From Bacillota bacterium (GTDB lineage: Bacteria > Bacillota > Clostridia > Clostridiales > Clostridiaceae), in contig JAJXWJ010000040.1 of NCBI GenBank assembly GCA_021781655.1, forward strand, positions 1 through 29,971: a stretch of 29,971 nt of DNA, read 5' to 3'. Both the position numbers and the translations under genes were made by a program. Each line of letters begins with the position of its first letter. Position 1 is the stretch's first letter. The notes under the pieces were generated by a model. That model did not search any database. It worked only from the letters and a program-made list of their open reading frames with translations, and was not told where the DNA came from. This document shows, piece after piece, positions 4,742 to 29,971 of this stretch.

Positions 4742-5341
4742 ATGAGAGAAAAAATTGATATAAAGTATTTAAAGATTTACCTTTTTATTTTAATAGTTGT
4801 TATTGTAGGAACAAGTGGCTTAACTTTATATTTTAGTAAATTAAGTGAAGCTAGTAATGAAACCTACAGTTCTAGTCTTACGCTTAATGAGATTAAAGAT
4901 GTTGCTAAGCTAGGTACTGTAGAATATTTAATGGAATCAAGGGTACTTATAGATGATAAAGGAAAAGTTATATTTTCATTAACTATTCCTGGAACAGAAA
5001 AAACTTATATTGCAGTAGCACAAGGACAAGTAACAGCAGGCATAGATTTAAATAAAATAAGTTACTTTAAAGTTAATAATGGTAAGGCAGAAATAAAGCT
5101 ACCTAAATCTGAAATTTTATACAAAAGTGTAGACCCATCTACTAAATGGGAAAAGGAAATGTCTGGCATATTTGCTCATATTACACCCGAGGAAATTACA
5201 AAAGCTGAAGTACAGGCACAAAACGATATGGTAAATAGAGCTATAAAAGAAGGGATTTTAGACAAAGCTGATAGCAATGCTAAAAAACTTATAACAAATT
5301 ATTTAAATGCAGCTGGGGTTAAAGAAGTTGTATTTGAATGA
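4742..5341 (+). CDS. Membrane-anchored protein with an N-terminal TM segment, possibly DUF4230-like
   Basis: It has a single N-terminal TM segment and an RBS. The family assignment is tentative. Confidence 0.5.
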   Translation: MREKIDIKYLKIYLFILIVVIVGTSGLTLYFSKLSEASNETYSSSLTLNEIKDVAKLGTVEYLMESRVLIDDKGKVIFSLTIPGTEKTYIAVAQGQVTAGIDLNKISYFKVNNGKAEIKLPKSEILYKSVDPSTKWEKEMSGIFAHITPEEITKAEVQAQNDMVNRAIKEGILDKADSNAKKLITNYLNAAGVKEVVFE

Positions 5342-5360
5342 TGAGGAAGAATAAAATAAA

Positions 5361-5460
5361 GATGTGACGCAAGTTGCCTCTATAAAAATCCTAAGAAAGT
5401 GCAACGCATTGAGTTTTAATTGACAAATGTCAATTAAAACTCCCTTTGTTTCACTTTTAA
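5361..5460. repeat. Copy A of a MITE-like inverted-repeat element family (collapsed short form with a perfect ttaattgacaaatgtcaattaa palindrome)
   Basis: Bases 5361-5413 are the reverse complement of 16168-16220. The ends gtgcaacgcatt...gtttcac are shared with copies B and C. Confidence 0.8.
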
Positions 5461-5501
5461 TCTTTTTATAGCTTAACAATATGCGTCGAATCTTCTATTT
5501 A

Positions 5502-6331: not shown

Positions 6332-6360
6332 TTTACACAGAACAGATGTTCGTATATAAT
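6332..6360 (+). promoter_or_regulatory. Sigma-A promoter (TTTACA-17-TATAAT) with a LexA/Cheo SOS box aGAACagatGTTCg in the spacer
   Basis: The -35 is at 6332-6337 and the -10 at 6355-6360. GAAC-N4-GTTC lies at 6340-6351. Confidence 0.7.
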
Positions 6361-6395
6361 TAAGGTAATATTATTATGGAATAGAAGGTAAGTTT

Positions 6396-7652
6396 ATGAA
6401 TAAGAAGAGAATTATATTTCATATCGATGTAAACTCGGCATTTTTGTCTTGGACTGCGGCATATAGGCTTCAGCAAGGAGAAATTTTAGATTTACGAACA
6501 ATACCAGCTGTGGTTGGTGGAAATCCTTTAGAGAGACATGGAATAGTTTTAGCAAAATCTATACCAGCAAAAAAATACAAAATAGAAACTGGGGAACCAT
6601 TATTTTCAGCAGTGCAAAAATGTCCAGAGCTTACGATAGTTAAACCTCAATATGATTTATATATAAAATGCAGTAATGCTATGGTTGAGGTTTTAAAGGA
6701 ATATACGCCTAAAGTGCAAAGATTTTCTGTGGATGAGTGTTTTTTAGAGTTCACTGGTATGGAAAATGTATACGGGGATTACATACAATTAGCAAAGGAT
6801 ATAAAGGAAAGGATAAAAAAGGAACTTGGTTTTACTGTGAATATAGGAATATCATCAAATAAACTTCTAGCAAAGGTAGCTTCTGATTTTACAAAGCCAG
6901 ACATGGTTCATACTTTATTCAAGGAAGAAATAAAATATAAAATGTGGCCCCTTCCAGTAGGTGACCTATTTATGGTTGGAAGAAAAACGGTGTCAAAATT
7001 AAATAAGCTTAATATAAGAACGATAGGAGACTTAGCAAACTTTGACCTAAGTGTTTTGAAGGCGGTTCTTAAAAGTCATGGAGTGCTTATATGGAACTAT
7101 GCAAATGGTGTTGAAGATTCAGAAGTTAGGTGTGGTAATTTTATCAACATGAAGGGACTAGGAAATTCTACTACAATATCTTTTGATGTAGAGGATATAA
7201 GAACAGCTCATATGATTTTATTGTCCTTATGTGAAACAGTAGGAATGAGACTTAGAGATTCAGAAAATTTATGTAGTTTGGTTTCTGTGGTAATAAAAAA
7301 TAGCGATTTTTTAATGTATAGAAGACAAAGGAAAATTTACTATGCTACAGATAGCACAAAAGAAATATCAAAAATAGCATGTGAGTTGTTCGATGAAATT
7401 TGGAAAGGGGAAGCTTTACGACTTATTGGAGTGTCTGTTTCTGAGCTTTGCACAAATGAAATGTATCAGATATCGATTTTTGAAGAGGAAAATATAGAAA
7501 AGGAAAGAGCCTTAGATAGCACTATTGATAAAATAAGAAGGAAATATGGCTCAAAAGCTATTTTAAGGGGAAGTTTTTTACATTCCGGAATAAATCCCAT
7601 AAATGGAGGCATTTCTGAAGAAAATTATCCTATTATGAGTAGTATTTTGTAA
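6396..7652 (+). CDS. Y-family translesion DNA polymerase (UmuC/DinB/UvrX-like)
   Basis: ImpB/MucB/SamB-type motifs are present (HIDVNSAFLS, SVDECFLEFTG). It is predicted to be SOS-regulated. Confidence 0.85.
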   Translation: MNKKRIIFHIDVNSAFLSWTAAYRLQQGEILDLRTIPAVVGGNPLERHGIVLAKSIPAKKYKIETGEPLFSAVQKCPELTIVKPQYDLYIKCSNAMVEVLKEYTPKVQRFSVDECFLEFTGMENVYGDYIQLAKDIKERIKKELGFTVNIGISSNKLLAKVASDFTKPDMVHTLFKEEIKYKMWPLPVGDLFMVGRKTVSKLNKLNIRTIGDLANFDLSVLKAVLKSHGVLIWNYANGVEDSEVRCGNFINMKGLGNSTTISFDVEDIRTAHMILLSLCETVGMRLRDSENLCSLVSVVIKNSDFLMYRRQRKIYYATDSTKEISKIACELFDEIWKGEALRLIGVSVSELCTNEMYQISIFEEENIEKERALDSTIDKIRRKYGSKAILRGSFLHSGINPINGGISEENYPIMSSIL

Positions 7653-15932: not shown

Positions 15933-16220
15933 AAAGCAAATCGCAGGTCGTTTTAATTGACAGTTGACAGTTGACAATGGACAATGATGGTTGATTTTCC
16001 TATGCTAAGCTACGGAAAATCTGTAATTTATTTAAATTGGCTAAAGCCAATGGAAACTGATGGTTTTGCTATGCAAAACCTAAAAATAATAATTTGTAGT
16101 TTTTCTGACTGAAAGGAAGAAAAACATCCTTCATTGTCAACTGTCAATTGTCCATTGTCAATTAAAACTCAATGCGTTGCACTTTCTTAGGATTTTTAAA
16201 GAGGCAACTTGCGTCGCATC
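15933..16220. repeat. Copy B (full-length, ~290 bp) of the MITE-like element. It has ~40-bp terminal inverted repeats carrying TTGACA arrays and three internal hairpins.
   Basis: The left end ttaattgacagttgacagttgacaatggacaatgatgg is the inverse of the right end ccttcattgtcaactgtcaattgtccattgtcaattaa. The right flank is the reverse complement of copy A's left part. Confidence 0.85.
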
Positions 16221-26497: not shown

Positions 26498-27247
26498 TTA
26501 TAGTCTAGCTTGGATAATACCTAAATATTCTTTAATAGAAATACTCAAATTATCGATTGCACTGCTGGAAGGAATTAAATCATTAATATTAAAGTGTGGA
26601 TTTACGTTAGTTTGATAGTCTGTAGGAAAAGGTGTTACTTTAATATCATATTTATTAAATTGAATCACGGAACGCTCCATATGGAAAGCAGAAGTAACAA
26701 GTATCGGTTTAGTAAAAGAATACATGTTTAATAGTTTTTTTGTGTTTTTAGCATTTTCTTCTGTGGTAAGACTTTTATCGTCGATAATGATTTTATCTCT
26801 AGGAATTCCCATGTTTATAAGAATTGTTTTAGCAATGTCTGCTTCACTTCCCGTAAAGGAATATACTTTTCCACCAGAAAAAATAATTGGAACTTTTAAT
26901 TTGTTATAAAGTTCCACAGCGGTAATGAGCCTATTTGCAGCAGAACCAGACAAGTGCCCCTTTGTACCTATGTTTGGAGTATCCAAGGTTGCACCCCCAC
27001 CTAAAACTACAATTACATCTCCACTAATTTTTGAGGGAGGTGTATATTTATTTTCTAAGCTTCTTATAAGAGCATTATCTATTAGTGAAGTTGATGATAA
27101 ATAAAATAAAAAAATAAATATAAAAAATATAGGGGCAAATTTATTTTTTTTCTTTAGCAAATAGAAAAATAAAATAAGCATTAAAAATATATAGATTCCA
27201 GGTGGCAATAAAAAAGTTTCATATAGAAATTTAATTATATAAATCAA
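26498..27247 (-). CDS. DUF218 (YdcF/ElyC/SanA-like) membrane-anchored protein
   Basis: It has the VIVVLGGGAT and IIFSGGK motifs. The probable start is a TTG at 27247, 7 nt after an AAGGAGG. The ORF-track ATG at 27280 has no RBS. Confidence 0.65.
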   Translation of the reverse strand: MIYIIKFLYETFLLPPGIYIFLMLILFFYLLKKKNKFAPIFFIFIFLFYLSSTSLIDNALIRSLENKYTPPSKISGDVIVVLGGGATLDTPNIGTKGHLSGSAANRLITAVELYNKLKVPIIFSGGKVYSFTGSEADIAKTILINMGIPRDKIIIDDKSLTTEENAKNTKKLLNMYSFTKPILVTSAFHMERSVIQFNKYDIKVTPFPTDYQTNVNPHFNINDLIPSSSAIDNLSISIKEYLGIIQARL

Positions 27248-27344
27248 AAGGCTTCCTCCTTGTAATAATTTTGGTAACATAAATTTATCATATAATGAAA
27301 ATTAAAAAAAGACATATTTTGAAATGTGTCAAATGAAAATAGAA

Positions 27345-27366
27345 AGAATAATATATACTAAGGTAA
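27345..27366 (+). promoter_or_regulatory. Conserved upstream motif AGAATAwTATATAsTAnGG found before Cys-rich genes. It is possibly the -10 region of an alternative (sporulation-type) sigma promoter.
   Basis: The same ~20-nt motif recurs at 28853-28878 and 29774-29793, each 50-90 nt upstream of a paralog start. Confidence 0.4.
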
Positions 27367-27405
27367 CAAAAGCTTAAAAATCGTTCAATGAAGGAAGTGA
27401 TAAGA

Positions 27406-27735
27406 ATGGATTTAGCTTCAAAAGAAATGGCTGCAACCGGTCTTTTTGGAGGTAATGGGCCTGAAAATTGGTATATATTGATTGCAATTTTCTTCTTCTT
27501 TTTTTGCTGCTGTGGGAGAGGTAATTTTGGAGGCTTTGATGAATGCTGTGCTGGTTCAGGAAGATGCTGCAGAAGACGAAGAAGAGGTGGTGGAGGGTTA
27601 TTTGTAAATAGTTATATAATTTGGATTGTTGTTATATTAGCATTACTCGGAAACTTTGGAGGAAACAGAAATACAAATATTATAAATGTAAATTCTGAAG
27701 ATGATAATGAATTTGATGAAACTACTGGTTTCTAA
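27406..27735 (+). CDS. Cys/Gly/Arg-rich small double-TM protein (module 1a). It is possibly related to YjcZ-family tiny TM sporulation proteins.
   Basis: The core reads FFFFFCCCGRGNFGGFDECCAGSGRCCRRRRRGGGG with two hydrophobic helices. An AAGGAAG RBS lies 8 nt before the ATG at 27406. Confidence 0.6.
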   Translation: MDLASKEMAATGLFGGNGPENWYILIAIFFFFFCCCGRGNFGGFDECCAGSGRCCRRRRRGGGGLFVNSYIIWIVVILALLGNFGGNRNTNIINVNSEDDNEFDETTGF

Positions 27736-27752
27736 AATAAAGTCAAATTTAG

Positions 27753-27780
27753 AGAGGGTAGAATGCCCTCTTTATTTATT
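27753..27780 (+). terminator. Short GC-stem hairpin (agaggg-tagaatg-ccctct) followed by ttatttatt. It may be an attenuator or terminator.
   Basis: The sequence shows this hairpin and T-tract directly. Confidence 0.45.
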
Positions 27781-27793
27781 GGAGGAGTGAATG

Positions 27794-28111
27794 ATGGAAA
27801 AGGAGAATGGACCAATAGAAGGTGAAGAGGTATTAGAAAATCCCTTTGCAAATTTAGATTTGAGCAATTTATCTGGCTTATTAAAAAATGTTGACATAAA
27901 TCAAATATTAAATTTATTGAATACTGTGGATTTGGGAAGCTTATCTGGCATTTTAGGAGGCGCAGGTGGAGGTTTAAATAATGGGGCTATTGGAAAAAGA
28001 GCTAGAGAGATAGAAGTTTTAAGTGCTATTAAGCCTATGTTAAGTGCAGATAGAGCAGGGATTATAGATATAATTTTGCAGGTTTATACCATTAGCAAGT
28101 TTTTAAAATAA
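27794..28111 (+). CDS. Small hydrophilic protein with 12-residue xLDxxQIxxLLN repeats (module 1b)
   Basis: Repeats are NLDLSNLSGLLK, NVDINQILNLLN and TVDLGSLSGILG. A GGAGGAG RBS precedes it. Confidence 0.55.
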   Translation: MEKENGPIEGEEVLENPFANLDLSNLSGLLKNVDINQILNLLNTVDLGSLSGILGGAGGGLNNGAIGKRAREIEVLSAIKPMLSADRAGIIDIILQVYTISKFLK

Positions 28112-28131
28112 CATTATACAAGGAGGGATTG

Positions 28132-28494
28132 ATGGTGTTAGACGATTTGCTGGGAGCCAACGGTATTGGTGGAAGTAATAACAATTTGATAATATGGGTA
28201 GTTGTTTTAGTTTTAATATTTGGTTTTGGAAATGGAAGAAATATGTTTAATCTAAATTTTAGTCAATGTGAGCCTAAGGAAGGATGCTGTAGTTCCCATG
28301 GTAAGCATAAGAGAAGATATTCCTCAGATTGCTCTTGCAGTGATAACCTCAATATGGGGCAAAATGGTATAAATAATGGCTTTGGTTTTGGAAGAATAAT
28401 AGGGAATAATGGTTTGTTTATTGCAGCAGTAGTATTGCTTTTATTTTTGTGTAGAGAAAAGGAAAGTGAACCTGAAAGTTCAAATGAGCAATAA
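28132..28494 (+). CDS. Cys/Gly-rich small double-TM protein (module 2a), paralog of 27406-27735
   Basis: The central region reads LIIWVVVLVLIFGFGNG ... CEPKEGCCSSHGKHKRRYSSDCSCSD ... GFGFGRIIGNNGLFIAAVVLLLFLC. An AGGAGGG RBS precedes it. Confidence 0.6.
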   Translation: MVLDDLLGANGIGGSNNNLIIWVVVLVLIFGFGNGRNMFNLNFSQCEPKEGCCSSHGKHKRRYSSDCSCSDNLNMGQNGINNGFGFGRIIGNNGLFIAAVVLLLFLCREKESEPESSNEQ

Positions 28495-28511
28495 TATAAA
28501 GGAGCTAAATC

Positions 28512-28796
28512 ATGCCGAGAAGAAAGCATCATCATAAGAAAAATATATCAAATGACTATAGTACTCTAGATTTTAGTAGAGTTGCGGAATTAATTAGTGC
28601 ATTAAATCTAGACAAATTATCTTCAGTAGTTAATAGCATGGAAGATAGCGAAGTGGCGGCAGAAAAAAAAGAAGAAGACTTTTCGGAAAGAGAACAGATT
28701 ATTTCATCTATTAGAAATTTAGTCAATGCAAATAAGGTAGAATTAGTAAAGGTTTTTATAGATTTGTATGCAGCAAGTAAAACAAAAGCTAATTAG
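28512..28796 (+). CDS. Small hydrophilic protein (module 2b) with a basic His-rich N-terminus and an LxxLNLDKLSSVV repeat
   Basis: An AAGGAG RBS lies 7 nt upstream. Confidence 0.5.
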   Translation: MPRRKHHHKKNISNDYSTLDFSRVAELISALNLDKLSSVVNSMEDSEVAAEKKEEDFSEREQIISSIRNLVNANKVELVKVFIDLYAASKTKAN

Positions 28797-28929
28797 GGTT
28801 AGCTATATTGATAAAAAATTGTAAGTAAGTATTATCACAACTTTAAAATGATTGAATAAAATATAGTATGAACAAAGGATGGAAAATAATAAAATAGTGA
28901 ATAATTAGCCAAGAGGAGGGCTTAAAAAA

Positions 28930-29217
28930 ATGAGTAAAAGAAGAGAAAGTAGTTGCTGCTGTGTAAATAATCAGATTCCAAGTGGAATGCCACTTAATAG
29001 AAGCTGCTGCTGCAGCTTACCAACACTAATTATTTTAATATTAATAATATTACAATTTGGAAGAAGAAGAGGTTCAAGTTATGAAGGAACAGATGAAGGT
29101 AGTAGTGGAGGAAGATTAATTGATAATAGCTTATTGTTCATAATAGCTTTATTCTATCTATCCTGCTGTAATTCTTGTAATAGAGGTTCAGGCATGGGCA
29201 TGGGTATGGGCTTTTAA
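28930..29217 (+). CDS. Cys-rich small double-TM protein (module 3a)
   Basis: It reads SSCCCVNNQ...SCCCSLPTLIILILIILQFGRRRG ... LSCCNSCNRGSGMGMGMGF. A GAGGAGGG RBS precedes it. Confidence 0.6.
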   Translation: MSKRRESSCCCVNNQIPSGMPLNRSCCCSLPTLIILILIILQFGRRRGSSYEGTDEGSSGGRLIDNSLLFIIALFYLSCCNSCNRGSGMGMGMGF

Positions 29218-29235
29218 AAAAATATAGTACAATAG

Positions 29236-29418
29236 AAAAAAATTACGCACTAACTCTTAAGCTTAAATTGTTAAAAAGTGAAACGCATTATATATTAATT
29301 GACATTTGACAATGGACAATTGACAATGATTGTGGATTTTTCTACGCTACTCTACGAAAAATCTTTAAACAATTTAATTGCCTAAAGGCAATTAAAACTT
29401 CCTACGTTTCACTTTATA
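29236..29418. repeat. Copy C (~180 bp) of the MITE-like element, inserted between modules 3a and 3b
   Basis: Its ends gtgaaacgcatt...cgtttcac match the family. It carries a TTGACA array and hairpins gatttttc-N13-gaaaaatc and ttaattgcc-taaa-ggcaattaa homologous to copy B. Confidence 0.85.
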
Positions 29419-29487
29419 ACTATTTTTAAAAGTAACTTAGTTCGTAATATTATTTTATTGTACCGAAAAAATATTGAGGTGTTTATT

Positions 29488-29736
29488 ATGTCTGGCAGCA
29501 AAAAGAGAGATTCTAAAGTGGAAAATGGAAAAACATCTAAAAATGAAGTGAATGTAAAACCAAATAAGCTCAATGTTAATGAAGCTATGGATATGTTAAA
29601 GAATGTAGATAGTAATCAAATACAGCAAATGTTAAACAATATAGATGTTAATGAAATTCAAAATGCTTTGAAAAATATAGATTTAAAACAGTTATCCATG
29701 CTTGTAAATATAATAAATTTGCTAAGTAGAAAATAA
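29488..29736 (+). CDS. Small hydrophilic protein with 12-residue N[VI]DxNQIQxxLxN repeats (module 3b)
   Basis: Repeats are MLKNVDSNQIQQ, MLNNIDVNEIQN and ALKNIDLKQLSM. A GAGGTG RBS lies 6 nt before the ATG at 29488. The ORF-track TTG at 29458 has no RBS. Confidence 0.5.
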   Translation: MSGSKKRDSKVENGKTSKNEVNVKPNKLNVNEAMDMLKNVDSNQIQQMLNNIDVNEIQNALKNIDLKQLSMLVNIINLLSRK

Positions 29737-29868
29737 TTAATAATTTTAGTTAAAAGCACAAATTAAAGAAATAAGAATATTATATAGTAGGTGTCTAGTA
29801 AATAGATATCGAGACAAAAGATGCAAAATGATACATCATGTAGGCTATAAAAAAGGGGGAAAGAACAA

Positions 29869-29971
29869 TGAGTTGTTGTGCAGATACAGTAAATTACGGC
29901 GGATATGCTGGCCTTGGAAACTTGGGAGGAAATTGTTGCTGCAATTTACCAAGCTTAGTAATATTAATATT
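29869..29971 (+). CDS. 5' part of another Cys-rich small TM protein (module 4a), truncated by the window end
   Basis: MSCCADTVNYGGYAGLGNLGGNCCCNLPSLVILI parallels the CCCSLPTLIILILI of 28930-29217. An AAGGGGGAAAG RBS precedes it. Confidence 0.55.

Follow-up and report, generated by a model that had tools for sequence, protein, structure and literature searches.

Near the end of a 29,971-nucleotide (nt) stretch of DNA from a Bacillota bacterium of the Clostridiaceae (GenBank assembly GCA_021781655.1, contig JAJXWJ010000040.1; this whole stretch is hereafter the window), the open reading frame (ORF) listing and the sequence place seven small genes on one strand, in the order a1-b1-a2-b2-a3-b3-a4, from position 27406 to just past the window end (Table 1). 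Here we describe this cluster, the two protein families that it encodes (a, hydrophobic and usually rich in cysteine (Cys); b, Cys-free repeat proteins), their conservation and their possible role in the clostridial spore envelope.

Seven small genes encoding two protein families

A Shine-Dalgarno-like sequence precedes each of the seven start codons (a1 to b3, and a4); the start of a1 was set at 27406 because the longer ORF beginning at 27388 has no ribosome-binding site (RBS). When a3 was looked up as an exact protein, the locus was found again on a longer contig (L001; GCA_027420975.1), where a4 is complete (L001:10939-11169; 76 residues, 8 Cys, a3 type) and is the final array member, followed by a convergent RusA gene and then by NERD and TsaD genes. 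The array thus comprises seven genes and ends at a4, contrary to a first-pass annotation, made from the letters alone, which had the cluster continuing beyond the window.

All four a proteins have two hydrophobic segments (apolar cores of approximately 13-16 residues) with flanking Cys clusters and a charged loop between them, and Cys accounts for 5.0-10.5% of their residues, compared with 1.17% in the other window ORFs of at least 200 residues; the two hydrophobic helices and Cys runs described at first sight were therefore borne out. The four proteins form three subfamilies, a1, a2 and a3, with a4 of the a3 type. The a1 protein (hydrophobic helices at residues 22-37 and 70-82; 7 Cys) contains the peptide FFFFFCCCGRGNFGGFDECCAGSGRCCRRRRRGGGG quoted by the first-pass annotation, an RRRRR loop and a C-terminal NTNIINV, and at 24 loci it has orthologues whose loop is poly-Arg or poly-His and whose tail reads NTNIINVDTDD. 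In some of these, a run of 9-10 His substitutes for the poly-Arg loop (L011 4617-4967, L015 6563-6916, L019 6567-6920 and L034 6688-7020), which suggests either metal binding or a purely charge-based role. The a2 protein (hydrophobic helices at residues 19-33 and 94-107; 6 Cys) has orthologues in the eight-gene clusters described below, and a3 (9 Cys) carries the family signature CCCSLPTLIILILIILQF ... IDNSLLFIIALFYLSCCNSC, of which the form common to a3 and a4 is CCCxLPxLxILILIILQF ... DNxxLFIIALFYLSCCNxC. An AlphaFold2 (AF2) model of a3 has helices at residues 30-46 and 62-80, with a predicted local distance difference test score (pLDDT) of approximately 70-75 on the helices and low values elsewhere.

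Two departures from this format bear on which parts of the a proteins matter. At locus L060, the a-type proteins have just 1-3 Cys and retain the helix signatures, so the conserved core of the family is the hydrophobic hairpin and not the Cys runs; the initial suggestion of a Cys-cross-linked assembly is weakened as a core function. There are, moreover, three cases in which a3 is divided between two neighbouring single-helix genes with their own start codons (46-56 residues each; C. sp. 19966 and C. oryzae; Table 1), and this apparently natural splitting shows the two halves of the hairpin to be modular. In Hathewaya histolytica (L009), the cluster includes an extremely Cys-rich 162-residue protein with CCCC runs (4904-5392) and a 354-residue Asn/Met-rich b-like protein (6345-7409), a large lineage-specific elaboration of both partners.

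The b proteins (0% Cys in b1, b2 and b3) have a basic N terminus, often MSKHKKHxK in relatives, followed by between one and four repeats of 12 residues (LLxNhDxNQhxx) and, except in b3, by a conserved C-terminal segment forming a helix pair (xxLNAIKPhhxxxRxxhIDxIIQxYxISKILK). Three repeats are present in b1 (LDLSNLSGLLKN / VDINQILNLLNT / VDLGSLSGILGG), followed by a Gly-rich linker and a conserved C terminus (EVLSAIKPML...IIDIILQVYTISKFLK); most clusters contain a core b gene, of which b1 is the orthologue, and the AF2 model of b1 is all-helical at low confidence. The b3 protein, orthologues of which occur in eight-gene clusters, has four repeats (MLKNVDSNQIQQ / MLNNIDVNEIQN / ALKNIDLKQLSM ...) and lacks the long C-terminal domain, and b2 begins with MPRRKHHHKK and ends in the C-terminal helix pair. 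The 12-residue repeats originally ascribed to the b genes are thus clear in b1 and b3 but degenerate in b2. With 19-39% identity to one another, b1, b2 and b3 are old paralogues.

Pfam and NCBIfam searches with the seven proteins of the window, with seven members encoded in C. sporogenes, C. rhizosphaerae, Caloramator and C. tepidiprofundi, and with 28 diverse a-types and 61 diverse b-types all came back without a significant match, in keeping with the original impression of an uncharacterised a and b system. A putative coat protein family, YlbD_coat (PF14071), recurred weakly, with four b proteins matching the same profile region at E values of 0.07-9; the best match of the b repeats (13.8 bits, E = 0.072) lies below the gathering score of 27, and none of the 61 diverse b-family members matched at E ≤ 0.01, such that the resemblance in the repeats (LLxNhDxNQhQ) can be considered a lead only. 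A sequence profile search of the PDB with the b alignment returned nothing below E = 0.13.

Table 1. Positions of the genes and other features of the a/b cluster (window coordinates unless a locus is named)
Feature	Position	Strand	Description
a1	27406-27735	+	109 residues
b1	27794-28111	+	105 residues
a2	28132-28494	+	120 residues
b2	28512-28796	+	94 residues
a3	28930-29217	+	95 residues
b3	29488-29736	+	82 residues
a4, 5' part	29868-29971	+	Cut by the window end
Promoter-like site P(a1)	27325-27355	+	-35 TGTGTCA (TC 27329-27330), 16-nt spacer, -10 AATAATATA (27347-27355)
Promoter-like site before a3	28837-28863	+	AC 28837-28838, 16-nt spacer, AATAAAATA 28855-28863
Promoter-like site before a4	29758-29784	+	AC 29758-29759, 16-nt spacer, AATATTATA 29776-29784
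Terminator-like hairpin	27750-27774	+	11-bp stem then T run, between a1 and b1
Nested inverted-repeat element	29227-29463	.	Resembles miniature inverted-repeat transposable elements (MITE) or repetitive extragenic palindromes (REP); 27-nt terminal inverted repeats; inserted in the a3-b3 spacer
Split a3 genes, L021	8854-8475 and 6489-6121	-	Adjacent single-helix genes
Split a3 genes, L030	6491-6836		Adjacent single-helix genes

Conservation and pairing across the Clostridia

To place the cluster among its relatives, we used both families as search seeds. A homologue search with a3 yielded 108 relatives, none with a Pfam domain, and those named by source were all Clostridium, Hathewaya or unclassified Clostridia/Bacillota bins. 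A genome scan with the a3 alignment turned up 47 loci, spread over Clostridium sensu stricto, Hathewaya and Caloramator, with C. sporogenes and C. botulinum among them, and classification of the small ORFs of these loci with local hidden Markov models (HMMs), built from the window and C. pasteurianum proteins, resolved four patterns. C. pasteurianum, C. acidisoli, C. akagii, C. arbusti and three metagenome-assembled genomes have eight genes, a1-a3-b-a2-b-a3-b-a3; at least 10 species have a four-gene form, a1-a3-b-a3; the form in C. botulinum, C. sporogenes, C. tepidum and relatives has three genes, a1-like-a3-b; and the fourth pattern consists of a3 genes on their own, as lone paralogues or as arrays. 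The window cluster is the eight-gene form without the small a3 that follows a1, and every window gene has a positional orthologue in C. pasteurianum. On comparative grounds, the cluster is old and conserved, with no origin in recent tandem duplication, and its ancestral unit is an a1-a3-b(-a3) core. The iterated two-gene module of the first-pass annotation accordingly holds as a description of the a/b alternation in the window but not as the ancestral unit, strict alternation being, on this comparison, a lineage-specific expansion that the window has in common, gene by gene, with C. pasteurianum, C. acidisoli, C. akagii and C. arbusti.

Linkage of the two families was assessed from both sides. 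Among the a3-seeded loci, 27 of the 47 contained b genes according to the local HMMs. The low-complexity b proteins were poorly served by word-indexed searching (two matches with b1 alone; 24 with a 20-sequence b alignment, all b2-like), and local HMMs and an exhaustive profile search were used instead. Compared against 1.84 billion proteins, the b alignment recovered 110 b-family cluster representatives, short proteins with one shared architecture, except for a 1099-residue protein that matched via its repeats only. At all four distant b-seeded loci whose contigs were examined, a-type genes adjoined b. The co-occurrence of a and b across the Clostridia, initially a proposed check, is thus found from either seed. 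Together with the detection of one family member as a protein (see below), these orthologous clusters exclude a chance origin of the genes, which the first-pass annotation had taken to be real on the strength of their RBSs and which the ORFs, orthologues and protein detection now corroborate. Pseudogenes or spurious ORFs were considered and ruled out by cross-species conservation and mass-spectrometry detection.

The genomic setting of the cluster varies. In the window, a divergent DUF218 gene and a GGDEF-EAL gene lie on its 5' side, and in C. pasteurianum it is likewise beside DUF218; in most other species, the cluster sits downstream of lon-engB-CPBP protease, and C. botulinum Group I and C. 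sporogenes have the simple three-gene locus 3' of lon-engB, which in C. sporogenes spans L054 7435-8598. Bactofilin genes lie directly beside the a/b cluster at three unrelated loci (L011 6279-6650, L059 6460-7959 and L060 2109-3412), two of them with Peptidase_M23, and an IS91-family (Y2_Tnp) insertion is found immediately 3' of the cluster in one C. pasteurianum strain (L008 7091-8601) and is absent from the other (L007).

The a3-b3 spacer of the window is interrupted by the nested inverted-repeat element (Table 1), related copies of which are present in two other intergenic window regions (15953-16189, comprising 15953-16058 and 16131-16189; and 5415-5468) and which is absent from the corresponding C. 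pasteurianum spacer (51 nt). The element is, on this comparison, not part of the a/b system. A contig from another sample (L002 1-10367) matches window positions 28851-29448 through a3 and then switches context inside the element, continuing into a Hydrolase_3 gene and a Wadjet-like DUF2397/DUF2398/SbcC_Walker_B/DUF2399 operon; the switch reflects either a rearrangement mediated by the repeat or a branch in the assembly. L006 departs from the window as well, 36 nt past a3.

A shared promoter-like motif and an orthologue in washed exosporium

Upstream of the a1 genes, we found a shared motif of fixed spacing, in relaxed form (A/T)C-N16-(C/A)ATAnnnTA, 43-73 nt before the start codon. At a distance of up to 150 nt, this relaxed motif preceded nearly all a1 genes (23 of 24) and about half of the a3 and a2 genes that head a unit (30 of 66 and 7 of 12, respectively), compared with 49 of 473 control ORFs (10%) from the same loci. 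In the form found upstream of a1, TGTGTCAA is followed after 13-14 nt by GAATAnTATATAnTA, and these blocks are recognisable from C. botulinum to C. pasteurianum amid AT-rich DNA that is otherwise unalignable; a3-type units have TATCACA and, at equal spacing, GAATAnTATATA. The motif stands in the window before a1, a3 and a4 (Table 1), and the conserved upstream element noticed initially is upheld before these three genes and these only. The site before a4 has an orthologous site in C. pasteurianum (L007, near position 6582). Because the window contains three promoter-like sites, we divide the array into three putative transcription units, a1-b1-a2-b2, a3-b3 and a4.

The motif was compared with the sigma-K consensus of C. 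difficile, in which the -35 element is AC for sigma-K and ATA for sigma-E, the CATA of the -10 element being common to both (PMC3789822). By this comparison the cluster motif fits sigma-K better, and the canonical AC-N16/17-CATAnnnTA is present in orthologues (L017, L059, L060, L030, L038, L020/L032 and L041). A sigma-G reading of the GAATA block was rejected, as the distance of the block from TGTGTCA on its upstream side is constant (13-14 nt), whereas that from the downstream AACAAAAG, itself a mismatch to CATnnTA, varies. A scan for the sigma-70 consensus found 16 sites, compared with 14.0 ± 3.5 expected in shuffles, and thus no enrichment. At a variable spacing of 5-12 nt 3' of the -10 element comes a third block of conserved sequence, AACAAAAG(A/C)T (in the window at approximately 27365-27374 and 28871-28879), probably at or just past the transcription start. 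Between a1 and b1, the terminator-like hairpin (Table 1) may attenuate read-through and thereby set the stoichiometry of a1 to b1 and the downstream genes; an Rfam scan of 27000-29971 returned zero families.

Proteomic data for one species place a member of the a family in an outer spore layer. The C. sporogenes a3 orthologue (P0248; 76 residues, 12 Cys, 8458 Da) has exactly the sequence of G9EWH5, listed as 'Protein ID 55, uncharacterised (12 cys), 8.4 kDa' (PMC4942563), which was identified by liquid chromatography-tandem mass spectrometry (LC-MS/MS) in bulk washed C. sporogenes exosporium (Janganan et al. 2016; PMC4942563 Table 1, SI-2). Presence in a spore outer layer is accordingly observed for this a3 orthologue only. 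In our literature search, the 2016 proteomics paper (PMC4942563) was alone in citing G9EWH5, and neither 'G9EWH5' nor 'transmembrane' appears in two later C. sporogenes envelope papers (PMC7333573 and bioRxiv 10.64898/2026.09.03.749163). A role in spore or envelope structure, one of the candidates raised by the first-pass annotation, thus gains backing both from sigma-K-type promoters and from an exosporium proteome.

A possible role in the spore envelope

We consider that the cluster genes are probably sporulation-specific spore-envelope genes. The three units would be read, most likely, by the late mother-cell sigma factor sigma-K, and would supply the outer envelope of the spore with components located in or close to the exosporium. 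As short hydrophobic helical hairpins, usually Cys-flanked and with a basic poly-Arg or poly-His loop, the a proteins could be embedded in a membrane or in a lipid-containing or hydrophobic layer that surrounds the forespore or lies at the spore periphery; in members with abundant Cys, disulfides could tie them to the likewise Cys-rich lattice of the envelope. The b proteins, soluble and free of Cys, would work with them from the mother-cell side as helical-repeat adaptors or assembly factors. This specific anchoring and adaptor mechanism is a tentative proposal that may well prove wrong in its particulars. Equally speculative, and rather unlikely as a whole, is the idea that a and b constitute an unrecognised assembly system, in which hairpins would anchor or nucleate the Cys-rich exosporium or interspace, b proteins would chaperone them or bridge to the lattice, and paralogue expansion would tune the architecture.

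Several observations weigh against this spore-envelope reading. At all three window sites, the first base of the -10 element is A rather than the conserved C, and the -35 element of P(a1) is TC rather than AC; because of these deviations, we infer sigma-K dependence rather than read it directly from the sites, and recognition by sigma-K in the window may require an activator, or a different sigma factor may be involved. A literature search on C. pasteurianum locus tags retrieved no paper, and no expression data were found for the orthologues or for the window organism. The hydrophobic cores are short, which leaves true membrane spanning uncertain, and the AF2 models are of low confidence overall (pLDDT 53 for b1 and 55 for a3). 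Judging from the Cys-poor a-types at L060, disulfide cross-linking cannot be a universal mechanism. Finally, the G9EWH5 identification rests on one peptide, GFHNECHGGR, of modest score (unused 1.70, 13.2% coverage), in a washed-exosporium list that also holds cytoplasmic contaminants, and b and a1 sequences are absent among those shown in the supplement (PMC4942563). Of the three tryptic peptides of P0248 with at least six residues, GFHNECHGGR is the sole one without a hydrophobic helix, and a single-peptide identification would be expected because the other two contain one.

Several alternatives would explain parts of these data. The a proteins might be double-length members of the YjcZ/tiny_TM_bacill family that share its role, with the b genes as incidental neighbours. 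Like the a proteins, members of that family are very small, combine an extremely hydrophobic helix with Gly/Cys-rich tails and are restricted to endospore formers; UniRef names the C. pasteurianum a3 orthologue 'Sporulation protein YjcZ'; and the split a3 halves at L021 and L030 approach YjcZ size (approximately 25-50 residues, one hydrophobic helix). They alone do so, as the window a proteins have 76-120 residues and two segments. However, the YjcZ models (TIGR01732; Pfam YjcZ-like) gave zero matches at E ≤ 10 among the window proteins, their relatives and the 28 diverse a-types (split halves included), such that the resemblance pointed out by the first-pass annotation appears to be compositional only, with family membership unsupported. 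The a proteins differ, too, in their two helices, family-specific signature, dedicated b partner gene and multi-paralogue operons, and the pairing of b with a from both seeds (27 of 47 and four of four loci) shows that b is not incidental. A literature search on YjcZ returned nothing relevant to the cluster, and we regard shared YjcZ membership as unlikely. 

It seems quite improbable, likewise, that the a proteins are holin-like late mother-cell permeabilisers or lysis factors for spore release, with b proteins as antiholin-like cytoplasmic regulators. Small two-helix proteins with charged termini are the general holin format, a late mother-cell type promoter would suit the timing of lysis and a soluble partner gene is directly adjacent; yet no endolysin or autolysin gene was linked at any locus examined, the sole holin Pfam match was to one member (E = 0.09), neither three to five paralogues per cluster nor extreme Cys content is a holin feature, and the persistence of an a3 orthologue in the washed exosporium of mature spores suggests a structural fate. 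The dense Cys runs, the H9-H10 poly-His loops of a1 orthologues and a weak match of b1 to Type-A lantibiotics (L_biotic_typeA; E = 0.067, 13.5 bits compared with a cut-off of 21.7) could be taken instead to indicate ribosomal peptides rich in Cys (precursors resembling those of bacteriocins, lanthipeptides or sactipeptides), accompanied by immunity or accessory proteins, or metallothionein-like membrane metal buffers, in either case unrelated to sporulation. This appears very unlikely: the lantibiotic match is below threshold, there is no leader-core architecture, the Cys-poor L060 members retain their helices, the neighbours vary (DUF218 here, lon-engB-CPBP in most species) and no modification enzyme, radical-SAM maturase, ABC exporter or peptidase was consistently linked across the loci examined, so that the combination of a family match with linked modification and export genes that marks a lanthipeptide or bacteriocin precursor cluster was not found. 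In a spore setting, the Cys/His loops may still bind metal.

Considered as spore-envelope genes, the a/b genes have known counterparts in kind. The a proteins resemble CsxA, CsxB and CsxC of C. sporogenes and of C. botulinum, as well as CdeC of C. difficile, in being Cys-rich, and the a3 orthologue was found in a purified exosporium preparation that also yielded CsxA, CsxB and CsxC (PMC4942563). Disulfide-stabilised assembly is the principle proposed for the Csx proteins and CdeC, which are larger, soluble, lattice-forming proteins (151-299 residues or more), CsxA and CsxC being described as SPOCS-domain proteins (bioRxiv 10.64898/2026.09.03.749163). The a proteins, by contrast, are hydrophobic hairpins of 60-160 residues with no detectable domain. 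As a working analogy for a tiny hydrophobic mother-cell protein with a soluble partner, we compare a and b with SpoVM and SpoIVA: in B. subtilis, SpoVM, a single 26-residue amphipathic helix produced under sigma-E, is a tiny hydrophobic mother-cell protein that marks the forespore surface, and SpoIVA is the soluble ATPase partner that builds on it. The a and b proteins have no sequence relationship to this pair and differ from it in their two-helix, Cys-rich format, their sigma-K-like promoters and their lack of an ATPase partner. Spore envelope proteins rich in Cys and tiny hydrophobic proteins of sporulation are both already known as general kinds; what is new is a paired hairpin and repeat-protein system with its own promoter type, whose two families have been neither curated nor studied for function.

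Little is settled about the attachment, nucleation and retention of the exosporium and interspace in clostridia, where dissection has been confined to the soluble lattice proteins CsxA, CsxB, CsxC and BclA. To these, the cluster adds two conserved families without curated annotation, one hydrophobic and usually Cys-rich and the other its soluble partner, and the C. sporogenes locus makes the envelope hypothesis testable in a genetically tractable surrogate, with bearing on spore adhesion, resistance and decontamination. Even if no link to the envelope emerges, the genes would establish a new family of small membrane proteins confined to endospore-forming Clostridia.

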